Below the pieces are notes generated by a model, which ran no database searches, was not told where the DNA came from, and saw only the letters and a program-made list of their open reading frames with translations. A program made the position numbers and the translations under genes. From the NCBI GenBank assembly GCA_022777645.1, contig JALFFX010000055.1, positions 2,705 to 66,704 of the forward strand: a stretch of DNA of 64,000 bases, given 5' to 3'. Shown in pieces: positions 1 to 64,000 of the stretch. The DNA is from Erysipelotrichaceae bacterium (lineage in GTDB: Bacteria > Bacillota_I > Bacilli_A > RFN20 > CAG-826). Within the stretch, counting starts at the first letter, position 1. Every line of letters starts with the position of its first letter.

Positions 1-160
1 TACTAAAAAAGAAGTCTTAGAGGTCATTAGAAATGAATTAGAGCAACGTTTCAACAAATTAAGAGACGAAGCGCAAATGACTACAAATGTTTGGGATAGA
101 CATGACATTGAATGTGCGCTTAAAGAACTCAAATTCGTTTATGAGAATATCTTGAAATAA
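1..160 (+). CDS. hypothetical protein, C-terminal fragment (gene starts upstream of window)
   Basis: open frame from position 2 ending at TAA 158-160; immediately followed by strong RBS of next gene. Confidence 0.4.
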   Translation, partial: TKKEVLEVIRNELEQRFNKLRDEAQMTTNVWDRHDIECALKELKFVYENILK

Positions 161-175
161 AGGAGGAAGGATATA

Positions 176-340
176 ATGGAAGACAAAAAATTAAGACCTG
201 GTGACAAAGGATATAAAGGCGGTACATCATTTGCTGACGTGCATGCTTGTGGTCAAGACAAACGTGTATATTATGTGAAAGATGAAAATGGTAATATCGT
301 TTCTGTACATGAACGTCCACTCATCTTTGGTATCTTTTAA
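176..340 (+). CDS. small hypothetical protein (54 aa)
   Basis: ATG 176 preceded by AAGGAGGAAGG RBS; stop TAA 338-340 overlaps ATG of the next gene (TAATG coupling); below the 60-aa cutoff of the ORF track. Confidence 0.45.
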   Translation: MEDKKLRPGDKGYKGGTSFADVHACGQDKRVYYVKDENGNIVSVHERPLIFGIF

Positions 341-654
341 TGACACGCATTACTCCTGAACAAAGAGTCCAACAAGAAATTATTAGATGGCTCCATCCCT
401 ACTTATACGAGCAGGGGGGGCCTATTATTTTACATGTTCGTTCTGGCAACTCAGGTGAGCCCAAAGGTGCTGCTGACTTGTGGCTGTGCGTTAATGGAGC
501 TCATGTCGAAGTAGAAGTTAAGGCACCTAACGGCAAGCGTTCAACTGACCAAGAACGTTGGGAGCGCATTTGCAAGCAGACGGGGGCCTCATACTTAGTG
601 ACTGACAATCTACCCGAGTTCGTCGCGTTTATCACACCATTTCTTACAAAATAA
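340..654 (+). CDS. VRR-NUC domain nuclease
   Basis: motifs NSGEPKGAADLWL ... VEVEVKAPNGKRSTDQERW match the VRR-NUC (PD-(D/E)XK) pattern G.PDL / ExK / S..Q; the gene is a ~48% GC island in ~30% GC DNA. Confidence 0.65.
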   Translation: MTRITPEQRVQQEIIRWLHPYLYEQGGPIILHVRSGNSGEPKGAADLWLCVNGAHVEVEVKAPNGKRSTDQERWERICKQTGASYLVTDNLPEFVAFITPFLTK

Positions 655-690
655 AAAAAAAGAGGGGGGGTCATTATATACCCTACCCTC
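652..690 (-). terminator. rho-independent terminator for the minus-strand gene 726..1076
   Basis: A9 then GAGGGGGGG-loop-CCCTACCCTC hairpin; on the minus strand this reads as hairpin followed by T9. Confidence 0.4.
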
Positions 691-697
691 ACACACG

Positions 698-727
698 CCC
701 CCAGTTCAACCAAACAACTGGGGTTTT
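698..727 (+). terminator. rho-independent terminator after VRR-NUC gene
   Basis: CCCCAGTT-9nt loop-AACTGGGG perfect 8-bp stem followed by TTTT. Confidence 0.6.
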
Positions 728-1076
728 ATTTTAGTCTTGGTCCAAATGAACAATCTAACATTGAGTCTTTAATTTCGTCACTGTTATCTTCGTCATTGTT
801 AGTGTCATCTTCGTCTAACTCAGACTTTGACTTTTTCTTGCAGTAAACACCAATCCAGTTAATTAACTCATCACCTTGTTTAAGTTCAATATCTAGACGA
901 GGAGATTTCCAGATTTTGAGCAGCTCTTTATCATCGTATTCGAGCTGTTCTTTTACAAACTTTTTATATGCACTATAAGCTTTATCAAAGTTGTTAAATG
1001 TTTTCAATTTTTTCCATACAAATTTATCAGCTTCGAATGTTCCAAGCCATAAATCAATTTTTGTAAAGTCTGCCAT
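726..1076 (-). CDS. hypothetical acidic protein
   Basis: 116-aa ORF; RBS GAGGTGA upstream on minus strand; C-terminal D/E-rich tail. Confidence 0.6.
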   Translation of the reverse strand: MADFTKIDLWLGTFEADKFVWKKLKTFNNFDKAYSAYKKFVKEQLEYDDKELLKIWKSPRLDIELKQGDELINWIGVYCKKKSKSELDEDDTNNDEDNSDEIKDSMLDCSFGPRLK

Positions 1077-5284: not shown

Positions 5285-6734
5285 TAAATTAGCGCTTAAT
5301 GCAATAAGAGCATATAAAGCAAAAGCACTCAAAGACTCTAAAGATGCTAAACCAGAAGGCGATAAAGTGAAAGCCTATAATAATGCATTAACTTATGCTA
5401 AGAAAGAAAATAAACCGTTCATTTATGGCTATACTAATCGTAATGGTAAATTCTTTGCAATTGATACACCAATGAAAGTTTCAGTAAGTCCTGCAGATGC
5501 TGAAAAAGAATTTAGAAAAAGATATAAAAATTGCAGTGTAGTTTATATTGCATATCCAGATAAAGAATTTATTAAAGATGAAAAAATTGATGTTGAAAAA
5601 GAACTTTTAGCAAATCATTTTGAAAAACGTAAATGCAAACCAGGTATCAATGGAAATGATATTTGTTACTATGATTACAAAGGAACGGGATATTTTCCAG
5701 AAGTTGTTGCTAGATTACAAAATAAATTAGGCAAATTTGACTATGTTGGTGAAACTAATAGAATTGTTGGTATTAAACACAAGCATAAATCATTAAAAGA
5801 AGATGCAGTTGAATTATCACTTGGTGAAAAATTAGCAAAAGCAGTTGCAAAAGCATTCAAAGGTCAATGTGGTCCTTTTGGTGGAGAAAATCCAACTAAA
5901 TATGGAAATAAAGTCAGTTTATATTCTCAAGCTGGAGTCACTTGGTACATATTTAATGATGATGGCTCTGTTGATGTTGAACCAGATGATGAAACTATTA
6001 GTTTGGCTGAAGAAGATGGTGAAGAAATTACAACACATTATAATTCAGCAGATGAATTATTTAATGGTGAAGATGGTTGGTTCTATGATGCTCCATCAAG
6101 TTTAGAAAAACAATTTAGAGAAATTTTAAAAACACGTTCAAATGTTAAAGATGCAAATTTGTATATTTACCAATTCCCAGCAAGTATGACTAAAGAAGAC
6201 ATGAAAGAAGCTAAAAAATATGGTTTAGAAATTCTTGGTAAAGTCGGTGAAAATGGTTTTCAACCTGGTGACTGGATTATTCAAGGAACACTTAAACAAC
6301 TTGAAAAATTCTGTGATGAGTCATTAGGTTATGTTATGCACCCAGACTATTTATATAAGTCTAAAGAATTTGATATTGAAGATGTATTAGTCAAAGATGA
6401 AGCACTTGGTGAAGTGCAAGTCGACGAATTTGCTGAAGAAGAACCAAATGTTTCTAAAAAAATTGAACATCAAGGTAAATGGACAAAGAATGAAATCAAT
6501 GGTCAAGAAATGACAGTTGAACAATTCTTAGAAGAATATGATGCTGGAAATTTACCTATAGTAGATGCAATTTATCCAGAGTCAGGTGGTTTTAAAATAT
6601 CAATTGAAGAAGTTAGAAAATTACCAAAAGATACTATGGGTAGATTCTTAATCTATGACGATGAAGTTGAAGTTGATGATGAATTTGGTCCATATATTAG
6701 TCATTTGTTATGGTTTCAAATTGAAGGCATTTAA
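5271..6734 (+). CDS. hypothetical protein (487 aa, acidic C-terminus)
   Basis: long ORF, GGAGG RBS. Confidence 0.7.
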   Translation: MNNNNKLALNAIRAYKAKALKDSKDAKPEGDKVKAYNNALTYAKKENKPFIYGYTNRNGKFFAIDTPMKVSVSPADAEKEFRKRYKNCSVVYIAYPDKEFIKDEKIDVEKELLANHFEKRKCKPGINGNDICYYDYKGTGYFPEVVARLQNKLGKFDYVGETNRIVGIKHKHKSLKEDAVELSLGEKLAKAVAKAFKGQCGPFGGENPTKYGNKVSLYSQAGVTWYIFNDDGSVDVEPDDETISLAEEDGEEITTHYNSADELFNGEDGWFYDAPSSLEKQFREILKTRSNVKDANLYIYQFPASMTKEDMKEAKKYGLEILGKVGENGFQPGDWIIQGTLKQLEKFCDESLGYVMHPDYLYKSKEFDIEDVLVKDEALGEVQVDEFAEEEPNVSKKIEHQGKWTKNEINGQEMTVEQFLEEYDAGNLPIVDAIYPESGGFKISIEEVRKLPKDTMGRFLIYDDEVEVDDEFGPYISHLLWFQIEGI

Positions 6735-37915: not shown

Positions 37916-39007
37916 TTAGTTTGTGAAATCGTAGTATCTTACGATGCCAGCATCATTTGAGCTCTCATTGTATGGTAATTGAACTTGAGAAACTTGACCA
38001 ACGAAGATAGAAGTATAAGCAGCTTTATCAACGTTTGGTAATGTGACATAGTGTTGAATTGGATATGGCATATCCATTCTGACGTAATCTTTTTCTTTAC
38101 GATAAGCAACTACTCTACCTTTGCTATTAGTACCAATTGCATTTAAGTCTGGTCTACCAACAATTGTGAGTTTGAATTTTTCTCCACCTTGTGCTTTTGC
38201 TAAGTTATGTTCCTTAATGAAATCAAATAAGGAATTGCTGTACAATGCACTAAATCTGGAAACTAAGTCTGACATCATCCATGTTGGAACAAGGAGTGTG
38301 TCTGGTAATAAATTGACGTTCATGTTGCTATCATTTAAGACATCTAAGAAGATACCATTAATAAATGCAACAACGACATCATCATTATATCCTTCAAAAC
38401 CAGAACCAGTTGTAGCGGAGTTCGTGATTGAAGTGACTTTAACTTTTGTTGAGTTGAATAAACCTGTGTCACCATTAATACCTAAATAAGCAACGTTTTG
38501 GCAGAAGTAATCCCAACCAGCTCTAATACCATCTTGATAAATTTGTTCGATGGATTTAGAAAGAGCAGCTTTCTTCATTTTTTCTAATTCTACAAATCTT
38601 AAATCATAAGCGATTTCATATGTGTAGACTTTTGCGGTATTTTGTGTCATACCAGCATTGACTCTTGGAATAAGGTTTCCACCATTTCCGAAGAGATTTC
38701 TTGTATCATTCATAATACCAGCCCAGTTGACTGTGTAGTATTCAATGAAATCTACAAATCCACCACCAGTTTCGATTGGGACATCTTGAGCATAAGTGAA
38801 GAAGACTTTTGGCTCATATGTCTTTTGGTGTAATTTTGCTAATTTTGTTTGTAAGAAGGTGAAGTTAGCATCGAAAACTTTGGTGTCATTAACGAACATT
38901 CTCTTTTGCATGCCAGTTAATGGGACAGCTTTTCCTCTATGTTTACGAGCGATAGAGTCAGAAAATCTGTATTTTGTTTCACTAGATGTAAATACGTTAT
39001 TCATCAT
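37916..39007 (-). CDS. major capsid protein (DUF2184-like)
   Basis: 363 aa; preceded by a decoration-like and an acidic scaffold-like gene in the DUF2213-DUF2190-DUF2184 arrangement. Confidence 0.55.
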   Translation of the reverse strand: MMNNVFTSSETKYRFSDSIARKHRGKAVPLTGMQKRMFVNDTKVFDANFTFLQTKLAKLHQKTYEPKVFFTYAQDVPIETGGGFVDFIEYYTVNWAGIMNDTRNLFGNGGNLIPRVNAGMTQNTAKVYTYEIAYDLRFVELEKMKKAALSKSIEQIYQDGIRAGWDYFCQNVAYLGINGDTGLFNSTKVKVTSITNSATTGSGFEGYNDDVVVAFINGIFLDVLNDSNMNVNLLPDTLLVPTWMMSDLVSRFSALYSNSLFDFIKEHNLAKAQGGEKFKLTIVGRPDLNAIGTNSKGRVVAYRKEKDYVRMDMPYPIQHYVTLPNVDKAAYTSIFVGQVSQVQLPYNESSNDAGIVRYYDFTN

Positions 39008-39017
39008 TCATTCCTCC

Positions 39018-39500
39018 TTATTTAATCAAGATTTCAGCTAATTTAGCTGTTCCTTGTAATTCAGTGACTCCTGTGAATTCCCAACCAAGTGCAATATTGC
39101 TTGAACTTACAGTTGTTAATTTACCAGCAGCGGTAACATATACTGGAGCACCTTCAACAGCAGCTGCTAAATCAGCAGCACTGTCTAATTCAACTGCCAC
39201 GAAACCACGAACAATTAAATTGAATTGTTCACCAGCTTTTGTTGCGACTGAACCAGTTGCAGCTGGATAGGTATCAGGGACTTTAACGTTTGTGGCTAAC
39301 AAGACACCAGCAACTTGTGAAGCAACAGTTAAACTTGCAGCAACTTTATATAAGCTGTGACTTGTGCCATGCATCATAACATCACCGTTATGAGCAGTTC
39401 CGGATTCCAAAGTAGCTGGCGCAACATCATATTTGTCACTAACAGTAGGATAGCCAGCCATTAATTTTTGAATTCCGTTTTTTCCAAGAATTAAACTCAT
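39018..39500 (-). CDS. head decoration protein (DUF2190-like) candidate
   Basis: 160-aa A/G/V/T-rich beta protein immediately upstream of the capsid gene. Confidence 0.45.
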   Translation of the reverse strand: MSLILGKNGIQKLMAGYPTVSDKYDVAPATLESGTAHNGDVMMHGTSHSLYKVAASLTVASQVAGVLLATNVKVPDTYPAATGSVATKAGEQFNLIVRGFVAVELDSAADLAAAVEGAPVYVTAAGKLTTVSSSNIALGWEFTGVTELQGTAKLAEILIK

Positions 39501-62256: not shown

Positions 62257-62506
62257 ATATGCTTAAAAGTAATTAGTTATCTTTAAATACAAATATTCAC
62301 TTATTTAAAGATAACAATGTACATATTAAGAATTTAGAGTTATTATATTTATGAACAAAAATTGTGATGTGTATTGACATTACGCTCCTTTGTGACTGGT
62401 AGTTATATCTCGCCAATATAACTACTTTTTTTATTGCTTAAAGATAACTAATTACATTTGAAAAATAACGTTATATAATAATAATGTCAATGATGGAGGA
62501 ACATAA
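62257..62506. promoter_or_regulatory. divergent promoter region at the -/+ strand switch, with several copies of the TAAAGATAAC element in both orientations
   Basis: 62270 AGTTATCTTTA (-), 62306 TTTAAAGATAACAATGTACAT (+), 62445 TTAAAGATAACTAATTACATTT (+), TATATAAT + GATGGAGGAACAT RBS. Confidence 0.5.
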
Positions 62507-62821
62507 ATGACAAACTTAAATGAAAATACAAAAGCAGCTCAATCAATGATTAGCCGCTACATCAATACTACTAAAGGTAGTAGTATTTATAATGCATATT
62601 GCAAACCTTCAGCAGCAAAAGTTGAGGCGTGCAATAAGATTAAAAAGGAAATGAATGAGGTAGGGGGGTATGGCTTCCGTATCACAAAAGCAGGGTCTAG
62701 CTTCTTTAGCTGTGCTTATCTTGTCAATCATATTGCTGATGGTGAAACTAAAGCAACTAAATATTTAATTTATCATACAGTGAATAATGTATATCGTATA
62801 AAATACGATGCTCAAAGATAA
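62507..62821 (+). CDS. hypothetical protein
   Basis: 104-aa ORF, GATGGAGGAACATAA-ATG; contains a G6 tract. Confidence 0.55.
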   Translation: MTNLNENTKAAQSMISRYINTTKGSSIYNAYCKPSAAKVEACNKIKKEMNEVGGYGFRITKAGSSFFSCAYLVNHIADGETKATKYLIYHTVNNVYRIKYDAQR

Positions 62822-62881
62822 ACAAGTCGTTAAACTTAAAAATATGATACAATATATTTGTCAATGAGGAGGAATGATTGG

Positions 62882-63691
62882 ATGGAACAAATTGACAACT
62901 TAATTGAATTAAAAAACAAACGTGAAATTGCATTTGAAGCATTTGAAGCAAATGAAAAAATTGTCATTGATGAACTGACAAAAATATTAAATGAAAAATG
63001 CTGTCCTGAAGGAGTCGAATTAGTAGTCGACTTAAAAATGCAAGTATGTCGCAGATATGATGAACAATATGGTCAATATTATTTCAATGGTGATATAGGC
63101 TTCAAGACAGATGATGAGGAGCGTCTTGCAAAAGGATGGAAAACAGACTTTGGCTCAGACTTTGATATTCGCATTTATCAAAATGGGGGTATTGAGATTA
63201 ACAAAGGAACGTGCGGCTCATATCGTCGTCAAGATAAGTTTCAAGTCGCTAGAGATTTATGCTTAGCTAAGATTTGGGAAAATGAAGAAGCATTGGTCAA
63301 TTGTATGAATTATCATTTCAAATATGACCTTTATAAGACACTTAAAGATATTGATAACAAAATTATACAAATTGAACAACAACAAAGATGTGATAATGCT
63401 TTAAAGGCATTAGGGGGGGCGGTTTATCTCTACACAGAAAATGTCTACAATAAATATGAATATGTCGGCGATAAATATGAAATTGCTAAAGCACACAGTC
63501 CAAGTGATATTTTCAAAATTGAAAAAATTACAGATAAAAATGTGCTTGGATACTATGTTGATTTTCCGTGGAAAAAGAAACGTCTTGACCGTAATATAAT
63601 TATGACCAAAATTATGAATAATTATTTAAAGACATCTGTTGAATTACCAACTGCATTCATAGTATCAAATGACGAGGAGGCGGGTAAATAA
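62882..63691 (+). CDS. hypothetical protein
   Basis: start set at MEQIDN (GAGGAGG RBS); G7 tract inside, C10 tract just after the stop. Confidence 0.55.
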   Translation: MEQIDNLIELKNKREIAFEAFEANEKIVIDELTKILNEKCCPEGVELVVDLKMQVCRRYDEQYGQYYFNGDIGFKTDDEERLAKGWKTDFGSDFDIRIYQNGGIEINKGTCGSYRRQDKFQVARDLCLAKIWENEEALVNCMNYHFKYDLYKTLKDIDNKIIQIEQQQRCDNALKALGGAVYLYTENVYNKYEYVGDKYEIAKAHSPSDIFKIEKITDKNVLGYYVDFPWKKKRLDRNIIMTKIMNNYLKTSVELPTAFIVSNDEEAGK

Positions 63692-63702
63692 CTACCCCCC
63701 CC

Positions 63703-63780
63703 CTCCTTTCTTAAAGATAACTAATTACATTTAAACATATTTGTGATACAATATAATTGTAAAATGGAAGGAAGATAATT
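63703..63780 (+). promoter_or_regulatory. promoter with TTAAAGATAACTAATTACATTT element
   Basis: near-identical to 62445-62466; followed by TACAAT and GGAAGGAAGATAATT-ATG. Confidence 0.5.
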
Positions 63781-64000
63781 ATGATTTACACACCAGATGA
63801 TATGAGGGAAATTATCAGTGACAATGTTGCTGATTTACAAATTGAAAGATTAAGTGATAATTTTCAATCATTAATGGACTACATTGATTTAGATACATTA
63901 GTTGCTTGGTTCGTAGAATGTATGTGCGAAAACGATCCTCATTACTACATGGAAAATGAAAATGATGCAGATGCAGTTTGTGATTGGTATCAAAAACACT
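63781..64000 (+). CDS. hypothetical protein, N-terminal fragment (continues beyond window)
   Basis: ATG 63781 with strong RBS; open to the window end. Confidence 0.5.
   Translation, partial: MIYTPDDMREIISDNVADLQIERLSDNFQSLMDYIDLDTLVAWFVECMCENDPHYYMENENDADAVCDWYQKH

Follow-up and report, generated by a model that had tools for sequence, protein, structure and literature searches.

A short gene for a nuclease, located near the beginning of a 64-kb stretch of DNA (hereafter the window, by which the whole analysed stretch is meant), differs sharply in its content of guanine plus cytosine (GC) from the rest of the window. Taking the evidence together, it is probable that this gene encodes a junction nuclease, placed at the end of an operon and inherited vertically, with a GC excess that is old and has been kept and with runs of G that are fixed in length. 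An earlier note on the same DNA had described bases 160–730 as a horizontally acquired moron, possibly a self-mobile nuclease cassette, in which slippage-prone G tracts could phase-vary expression. The window has 29.1% GC over its whole length and, by its gene content, reads as the genome of a tailed phage.

The region comprises the following features:

161–171, + strand: Shine-Dalgarno sequence of the open reading frame (ORF) ORF54, AGGAGGAAGG, 3' of the stop codon of the upstream gene (158–160), as read from the sequence
176–340, + strand: ORF54, 54 residues, C-terminus ...NGNIVSV.ERPLIFGIF, from the ORF list
338–342, + strand: TAATG, overlap of the ORF54 stop and the nuclease start; no separate Shine-Dalgarno for the nuclease
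340–654, + strand: stand-alone VRR-NUC (PD-(D/E)XK) nuclease, 104 residues, assigned by motif, profile and fold
414–420, + strand: G7 tract, formed by the third base of Gln25 (CAG) and GGG GGG, the codons of Gly26 and Gly27
653–661, + strand: A9 run, the last two bases of the stop codon included, which reads as the U9 tail of hairpin 1 on the - strand
662–690, - strand: hairpin 1, GAGGGGGGGT...CCCTACCCTC, predicted to end the ORF116 transcript with the U9 tail
664–670: G7 tract in the stem of hairpin 1
699–723, + strand: hairpin 2, CCCCAGTT...AACTGGGG, followed by TTTTATTTT at 724–732 and predicted to end the + strand operon
726–1076, - strand: ORF116, convergent, present in all syntenic relatives

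In the arrangement that we propose, bases 160–730 would be the end of a phage early operon, with its two final genes and its terminator. ORF54 would be translated from its strong ribosome-binding site and the nuclease by coupling at the TAATG; to judge from its homologues, the nuclease would function as a homodimer and cut branched DNA junctions, four-way (Holliday) ones among them, and in this way it would clear replication and recombination intermediates of the phage genome. Transcription from left to right would end at hairpin 2 and its U-run (699–732), and that of ORF116 at hairpin 1 and its U9 tail (690–653). The nuclease would be a conserved anchor gene of the phage group inside a mosaic region, its high GC would be an old property of this single gene, maintained by a persistent force, and the tracts of six or seven G would be operon elements of fixed length, used as ribosome-binding sites, as terminator stems and as GGG-GGG codons for Gly-Gly.

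The nuclease, its upstream partner and the terminator

The identity proposed in the earlier note, a VRR-NUC protein of the PD-(D/E)XK type, was borne out by motif, profile and fold. An exhaustive HMMER search of 1.84 billion representative proteins returned 137 relatives, mostly of about 100 residues, and in an alignment of 39 family members the residues E7, G43, D46, E59, K61 and Q71 are invariant; E7, D46, E59 and K61 are the catalytic residues, and Q71 is the conserved Gln of VRR-Nuc proteins, which bonds the catalytic Lys and has no equivalent in Hjc (PMC4103454). The window protein matches PHROG 93 (endonuclease) and PHROG 5702 (Holliday junction resolvase), 16 of the 39 aligned members match Pfam VRR_NUC individually (E <= 0.01; best 4e-9), and the family profile matches the structures 4qbo, 4qbn and 4qbl of the Protein Data Bank with E values of 3e-8 to 2e-4 (4qbo at 2.8e-8). 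The AlphaFold2 model has a predicted local distance difference test score (pLDDT) of 95.6 and shows, in order, the helices (H) and strands (E) H6-21, E29-33, E47-51, E54-60, H69-81, E84-88 and H91-102. When this model was used as a Foldseek query, ranks 1–7 were occupied by 4qbn and 4qbl (template modelling score, TM, 0.63–0.76), 4qbo was matched as well, and the next structures after those of VRR-NUC proteins were from Hjc, FAN1 and RecU (2wj0, 2wcw, 1zp7 and 2fco for the Holliday-junction resolvases). On its motif and predicted fold, the protein is therefore filed as VRR-NUC.

Three stand-alone VRR-Nuc proteins with solved structures, stNUC (4QBO), saNUC (4QBN) and psNUC (4QBL), are dimers that cleave four-way junctions (Pennell et al. 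2014, PMC4103454). They have in common with the window protein the E...D...ExK motif and the conserved Gln, at an aligned identity of 15–25%; dimer formation and junction cleavage were shown for those three, and from this homology we infer a resolvase activity here. The window subfamily is unlike the solved proteins in that it always stands behind a conserved partner ORF of 54 residues. The likeness to Hjc, RecU and other phage PD-(D/E)XK Holliday-junction resolvases lies in the common fold and the expected role on branched DNA; nevertheless, Hjc and RecU are sequence families separate from the window nuclease, and the Gln-Lys bond is absent from Hjc. As a gene it is ordinary, one more phage junction-resolving nuclease, in a lineage without a phage relative in GenBank.

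ORF54 has a strong ribosome-binding site, AGGAGG, and its stop codon overlaps the start of the nuclease at 338–342, as the earlier note had it. Since this TAATG overlap is found and the nuclease has no Shine-Dalgarno of its own, translation of the nuclease is predicted to be coupled to that of ORF54. In the relatives the two genes overlap or are 1–2 bases apart, and a homologue of ORF54 lies directly 5' of the VRR-NUC gene in nine related loci (L001, L003, L007, L008, L011, L012, L013, L015 and L017); the two are a conserved pair, and their tight coupling extends to relatives in which nuclease identity to the window falls to about 39%. ORF54 matched no family in Pfam, PHROG, NCBIfam or PADLOC, and NCBIfam and PADLOC gave no match for any of the three proteins; ORF54 may serve the nuclease as a partner or a regulator. 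No promoter-like or terminator-like site was detected between 231 and 340.

The island had also been described as bracketed by back-to-back terminators; both hairpins, however, lie 3' of the nuclease, and none was found upstream. The G7 tract at 664–670 does lie in a terminator stem, that of hairpin 1. The fold of bases 645–740 gave z = -3.6 for the + strand and z = -2.6 for the - strand. On the + strand the hairpin at 699–723 is followed by UUUUAUUUU, a T-run that overlaps the stop codon of ORF116 (726–728), and on the - strand the hairpin at 690–662 is followed by U9, which is the form of a bidirectional intrinsic terminator. The + strand transcript reaches its U-run only past hairpin 2, and the - strand transcript reaches U9 only past hairpin 1; the two are therefore read as one tandem bidirectional terminator. 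A simple terminator scan overlooked both hairpins because of its loop and mismatch limits. An equivalent of hairpin 1 was found in L001 and L003; the stem of hairpin 2 is altered on both sides in L001 (GCCGG...CCGGC) with pairing retained, and in L007 a single classic A4-stem-T9 terminator takes the place of the tandem hairpins. The L013 lineage has a different terminator and a longer, different C-terminus of the nuclease; in L013 itself an intact VRR-NUC gene of 118 residues lies at 6168–6524, although the gene table of that contig lists none between ORF54 and the convergent ORF (6166–6679).

Inheritance of the gene and age of its GC excess

A GC island at 340–720, as the earlier note proposed, is plainly present: these bases contain 47.2% GC versus 28.9% in the rest of the window, and they are the maximum of all 381-base segments (mean 0.290, standard deviation 0.038), the runner-up being 0.43 at 39046. 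The nuclease gene (340–654) has a GC of 0.470, with 0.56, 0.42 and 0.43 (0.429) at first, second and third codon positions (GC1, GC2 and GC3); the 84 ORFs of the window average 0.41, 0.30 and 0.19 (0.188, standard deviation 0.071), and the GC3 of the nuclease is the highest among them. Its composition is accordingly unlike that of the genome, and it contains codons that are rare in the window, namely three GGG (3.9% of Gly codons), three CCC (2%), two CGC (4%) and two CAG (4%). Among the codons that had been named as rare elsewhere, GCG (3%) and GGC (12%) are indeed uncommon, but CGT accounts for 25% of Arg codons.

The history of the gene was followed in eleven related loci that come from independent metagenome assemblies (L001–L003, L005, L007, L008, L011–L013, L015 and L017); retrieval with five sequences yielded one distant locus from IMG/VR, two from the JGI metagenomes and zero from bacterial and archaeal genomes. 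The nuclease is 98% identical to that of the window in L002, 76% in L003, about 71–74% in L001, 52–57% in L013, L015 and L017, about 54–55% in L007, 47% in L005 and L008, 45% in L011 and 39% in L012, and distant homologues occur in two unrelated phages (L009 and L004). In all eleven loci the gene occupies the same position, behind ORF54 and before the convergent ORF116 wherever flanks exist, so that the presence/absence polymorphism among related phages that would mark a moron was not seen. The protein has diverged in step with its neighbours: identity to the window is 0.71 for the nuclease of L001 (neighbours 0.62, 0.74 and 0.45), 0.76 for that of L003 (neighbours 0.48 and 0.70) and 0.54 for that of L007 (neighbours 0.33, 0.52, 0.51 and 0.36). 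A sliding nucleotide comparison revealed phage mosaicism, the gene 5' of ORF54 being unrelated in L013, with ORF54, the nuclease and ORF116 as conserved anchors within the mosaic region. In a neighbour-joining tree the clade forms a ladder of P0005, P0004 and P0003, and then P0002 with the window; of all family members, only P0028 and P0047 have an amino-acid composition of the GC-rich kind, and both are placed elsewhere in the tree, and the nearest outgroup homologues come from AT-rich contexts. From the comparison of loci we conclude that the gene is old and vertically inherited, and that it is not a moron, a homing element or a recent import.

The GC content of the nuclease gene and of the rest of each locus is as follows:

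window: gene 0.470, rest of locus 0.290
L015: gene 0.459, rest of locus 0.319
L013: gene 0.454, rest of locus 0.338
L001: gene 0.444, rest of locus 0.322
L005: gene 0.426, rest of locus 0.310
L003: gene 0.417, rest of locus 0.313
L007: gene 0.407, rest of locus 0.298
L008: gene 0.351, rest of locus 0.285
L011: gene 0.336, rest of locus 0.281
L012: gene 0.340, rest of locus 0.327
L004: gene 0.307, rest of locus 0.302
L009: gene 0.255, rest of locus 0.241

The difference between gene and flanks is +0.18 in the window, +0.10 to +0.14 in L001, L003, L005, L007, L013, L015 and L017, +0.07 in L008, +0.06 in L011, and at most +0.01 in L012, L009 and L004. The enrichment (41–47% versus 29–34%, with a GC3 of 0.31–0.44) is thus common to the lineages with a nuclease identity of at least about 47%, except L008. 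The earlier note had expected that the gene, if it were not an import, would be found in related phages at typical AT content; this holds for the distant ones, but the close relatives are GC-enriched. Synonymous divergence (pS) is 0.76–0.86 in the convergent neighbour, i.e., saturated, versus 0.50–0.55 in the nuclease gene, and the fraction of conserved residues encoded by the same codon is 0.63–0.66 in the nuclease versus about 0.51–0.54 in the pooled neighbours; L013 and L015, which differ at 12% of sites, have an equal GC. In our reading of these comparisons, the enrichment would be old and kept rather than the decaying trace of a transfer; since the neighbours have reached or nearly reached saturation at synonymous sites, its retention implies a lasting force on the gene.

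Two causes are preferred here for this force. One would be GC-biased repair, a process that has been proposed for bacteria (PMC4450053), acting at a conserved recombination anchor in a mosaic region; the other would be selection for rare GC-ending codons which, together with initiation by coupling only, keep a hazardous nuclease at a low level. If the GC is indeed kept by biased repair or by selection for slow translation, the gene would offer a compact natural test case in phages.

A replacement of the allele by that of a GC-richer relative in the ancestor of the clade, with a decay to the AT background that is still incomplete, would also account for an old excess. It would agree with the restriction of the excess to one clade, with its absence in the distant syntenic L011 and L012, with the fact that GC1 and GC2 are raised as well as GC3, and with the regional mosaicism, which shows that exchange happens. 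Nevertheless, no GC-rich relative is closer than the AT-rich ones, the GC3 of 0.31–0.44 is held across lineages in which the synonymous sites of the neighbours are saturated, and the equal GC of L013 and L015 despite their divergence does not suggest decay; likewise, no net drift from GC to AT was found, a point that is weak because of the control gene described below. We consider such a replacement unlikely.

Phage morons are accessory genes that are autonomous, each with a promoter and a terminator of its own, and whose composition is atypical. The nuclease resembles them in its composition, atypical at all three codon positions, and in the terminator that lies 3' of it, and the mosaic region in which it is found would be in line with a recent import, as a moron or self-mobile cassette, from a GC-richer genome together with its own expression signals. 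Unlike in morons, however, no promoter or terminator belonging to the gene precedes it, its start overlaps the stop codon of ORF54, and instead of a patchy presence among close relatives it is universal in them, at one site and co-divergent with its neighbours. A donor was found neither in bacterial genomes nor in known phages: one genome each of 185,579 bacterial and archaeal species contained no homologue of the nuclease, so that the proposed search of host genomes gave no match, and the nearest outgroups are AT-rich. To judge from Pfam and the AlphaFold2 model, the protein is a single domain of 104 residues without an extension or a DNA-targeting domain of the homing-endonuclease kind, and the universal, syntenic distribution is the opposite of the sporadic one of homing endonucleases. 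A recent import is already largely refuted by these observations, and the chance left to it is minimal. The case calls for some caution, given that a sharp GC island with rare codons resembles a recent import and yet belongs to an old, conserved and vertically inherited gene; an island of deviating composition in a phage does not, therefore, have to stem from transfer.

G tracts of fixed length

The early operon, as argued in the last section, continues at the other end of the window, where further homopolymer runs are found:

62507–64000, + strand: upstream part of the operon, with genes for a 104-residue protein, a 277-residue protein and a truncated 79-residue protein
62663–62668, + strand: G6 tract in the upstream part of the operon
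63413–63419, + strand: G7 tract in the upstream part of the operon
63695–63703: C9 run, terminator stem in the upstream part of the operon, fold z = -3.5

The earlier note had placed a G7 tract inside the nuclease coding sequence at 412–420; the tract is real and covers two Gly codons, but its position is 414–420. Of the similar runs that it gave for 62507–63700, the G6 and the G7 are present, and the supposed C10 is a C9. The word GGGGGG has 11 matches in the window, overlaps included, versus 0.76 expected from shuffles, and eight of the nine runs of at least five G or C in the 64 kb lie inside the early operon. Three of the 40 Gly-Gly pairs of the window are encoded as GGG-GGG, and all three belong to this operon.

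The pair GGG GGG of the nuclease is retained in the window, L002, L001, L003, L007, L005, L013, L015 and L017, and another conserved Gly codon of the same gene varies among GGA, GGT and GGG; the GGG-GGG pair in the gene for the upstream 104-residue protein is also kept in L001 and L007. The coding tract is a G7 in the window and in L002, and a G6 in the eight other orthologues that have it. This difference comes from substitution of the preceding base (CAG, CAA, TAT, CAC or CAT), and all ten genes are in frame, so that no indel difference in length between strains was found. The tract that follows the nuclease stop codon is a G7 in six of seven sequences (window, L002, L001, L013, L015 and L017) despite differing terminators behind it. 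Tracts are also numerous in relatives, with eight in 5.3 kb of L001, nine in L013 and ten in L015; none was found in L004, L009 and L012. Their usual form is [T/A]A-G6-[T/C]. Four of them are the Shine-Dalgarno of the next gene, 7–9 bases 5' of its ATG (L001 1353, L013 3383, L015 1938 and 2467), and some others are terminator stems. A Chi-like or packaging-site role was considered and set aside, since all tracts point the same way on both sides of the likely junction and are scattered along several kilobases.

Slippage of the tract at 414–420 could in principle make the gene a contingency locus, switching the nuclease on and off, the off state being a product of 56 residues with a hydrophobic tail. 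The coding tract is conserved although GGG is the rarest Gly codon, and the +1 frame stays open for 30 codons past it. G7 is at the lower limit of the tract lengths usually screened for phase variation; slippage was taken to need about seven or more G, a threshold that depends on the host. Tracts in Campylobacter phages are said to be roughly nine G or more, longer than those described here, and to lie in receptor-binding genes and vary in length between and within stocks. In the window clade, by contrast, they consist of six or seven G, keep their length between divergent relatives and are found in early genes, at ribosome-binding sites and in terminators. In the ten orthologues, which come from independent samples, G6 and G7 differ by substitution and the frame is always intact, the non-coding tract after the stop codon is equally fixed, and the open +1 frame varies from 14 to 52 codons and is not conserved. 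The comparison of orthologues does not support phase variation, because a length that hardly changes over deep divergence is the reverse of how hypermutable tracts behave, and a contingency locus has very little chance of being the right explanation. PolyG switching is known from Campylobacter phages (Sorensen et al. 2021, Cell Rep 35:109214, as cited in PMC11868660), likewise with G homopolymers inside coding sequences of an AT-rich phage.

It is conceivable, although we put this forward only tentatively and hold it to be doubtful, that the GC-rich recoding and the fixed tracts are two faces of one selected system at the nucleotide level. Either the tracts would be Shine-Dalgarno-like sites that hold ribosomes, as a translation pause or as a shield of the mRNA from 5'-to-3' decay, or the region would be a recombination hot spot with GC-biased repair; in both cases the equilibrium GC of the gene would be maintained some 15 points higher than the GC of the genome. 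Strong Shine-Dalgarno sites shield mRNA from 5'-to-3' decay in Bacillus subtilis (PMC5737220). The fixed-length G tracts, including the one directly after a stop codon, in any case pose a small but sharply delimited puzzle.

Several points weigh against the view of an old, kept GC excess with fixed tracts in a junction nuclease. The window protein scores only 17.7 bits with Pfam VRR_NUC (PF08774), below the gathering score of 23.8, and over residues 56–84 alone; the junction-cutting role assigned to the subfamily rests on homology. The lower synonymous divergence of the nuclease is only moderately significant. Substitution counts polarised between the window and L002 and among other pairs gave no excess of GC-to-AT changes, but the numbers are small and the apparent AT-to-GC excess recurs in an AT-rich control gene, as a known bias of parsimony, so that this test of island decay does not discriminate. 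Consensus assemblies could miss variants of tract length that are present at low frequency within a phage population.

A second coding or structural layer (a +1 ORF from the ATG at 434, an antisense ORF at 501–713, or a structured RNA) that forces the composition can be given hardly any credence: the lower synonymous divergence of the nuclease, an ATG 13 bases past the G7 that opens an ORF of 26–49 codons in the window, L002, L003 and L001, and an antisense frame free of stops for 45–96 codons in all loci would suit it, but L007, L013 and L005, all equally GC-rich, lack the ATG, the antisense ORF has no conserved start and holds the - strand terminator in the window, and the RNA of the nuclease gene folds no better than shuffled sequence (z = +0.99), with a covariation term of 0.29 in the alignment fold and no match in Rfam. 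The antisense gene and the structured RNA were rejected on these grounds, and since neither the ATG nor the ORF length is conserved, a product of +1 frameshifting or of an internal start was dismissed as a trait of the group as a whole. In the window the ORF from ATG 434 (434–514) has 26 codons and a hydrophobic product, MFVLATQVSPKVLLTCGCALMELMSK; it is present in L002 and L003 and longer in L001, and since its ATG is absent in L007, L013 and L005 it is probably a by-product.

The phage genome and its early operon

The phage lineage is a new, AT-rich gut phage. Its larger modules are:

about 1.9–24 kb, + strand: replication and recombination module, with an SNF2 helicase, a DUF5906 primase-helicase, a PDDEXK_1 nuclease and an AAA_24 protein
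minus strand: structural module, including a PF09950 major capsid protein and a distant portal homologue

No close relative of the window was found among 50,697 GenBank phage records, and neither megablast of bases 1–1500 nor tblastn of the nuclease against these records gave a match. L001 aligns to the window at 62657–63999 and then, after 2.1 kb more, at 2–1776, and in L007 the gene order is continuous across the window junction. Both ends of the window belong to one + strand operon, of which about 2.1 kb, between base 64000 and base 1, are absent from the window; because L001 and L007 are colinear across the junction, the window probably derives from a contig of about 66 kb that is circularly permuted. 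The nuclease lies at the 3' end of this early operon of about 4.4 kb, in which GC3 is somewhat raised throughout (0.26–0.29). Pfam and PHROG scans of eight neighbouring early proteins gave a single marginal match, to phrog_224 (single-strand DNA binding protein), with E = 0.009 at L001:3424-3633.

In the relatives, the stretch missing from the window contains a tRNA with the anticodon CAT (L001 2971–3044, 70 bits), preceded by about 400 non-coding bases of 38–41% GC (stretches L001 2545–3065 and L007 2334–2680). At L007 2601–2660 there is a sub-threshold match to a ribozyme like that of hepatitis delta virus (HDV; RF02682), with 28.7 bits versus a cut-off of 44 and E = 0.039.

A 19-mer, TTAAAGATAACTAATTACA, has ten copies in the window at no more than three mismatches, versus 0.21 expected, and it also occurs in L001 near 1049 and 1596. 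The sites in the window are:

1305, - strand: 19-mer
14679, + strand: 19-mer
59120, - strand: 19-mer
60007, - strand: 19-mer
60171, - strand: 19-mer
60253, - strand: 19-mer
62268, - strand: 19-mer
62305, + strand: 19-mer
62438, + strand: 19-mer
63711, + strand: 19-mer

Its orientation is always that of local transcription, and at 62438 and 63711, the two sites whose flanks were read, it lies about 17 bases 5' of an extended -10 element of the type TGnTAcAAT. The copies look like a family of early promoters with a common upstream or operator element.

Bases 1100–1860 are non-coding, with a GC of 17–21% between 1100 and 1500, and they include a direct repeat, CATGAGCAATATTATTGCTAAAA, at 1724–1746 and 1757–1779, with the palindrome AGCAATATTATTGCT inside each copy. 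Placed 5' of the start of the + strand module, this region with its repeat looks like an operator or an origin. The stretch of the window with the second-highest GC (43%) is 39046–39426; it lies inside an ORF on the - strand, 39018–39500, which adjoins the major capsid gene at 37916–39007.

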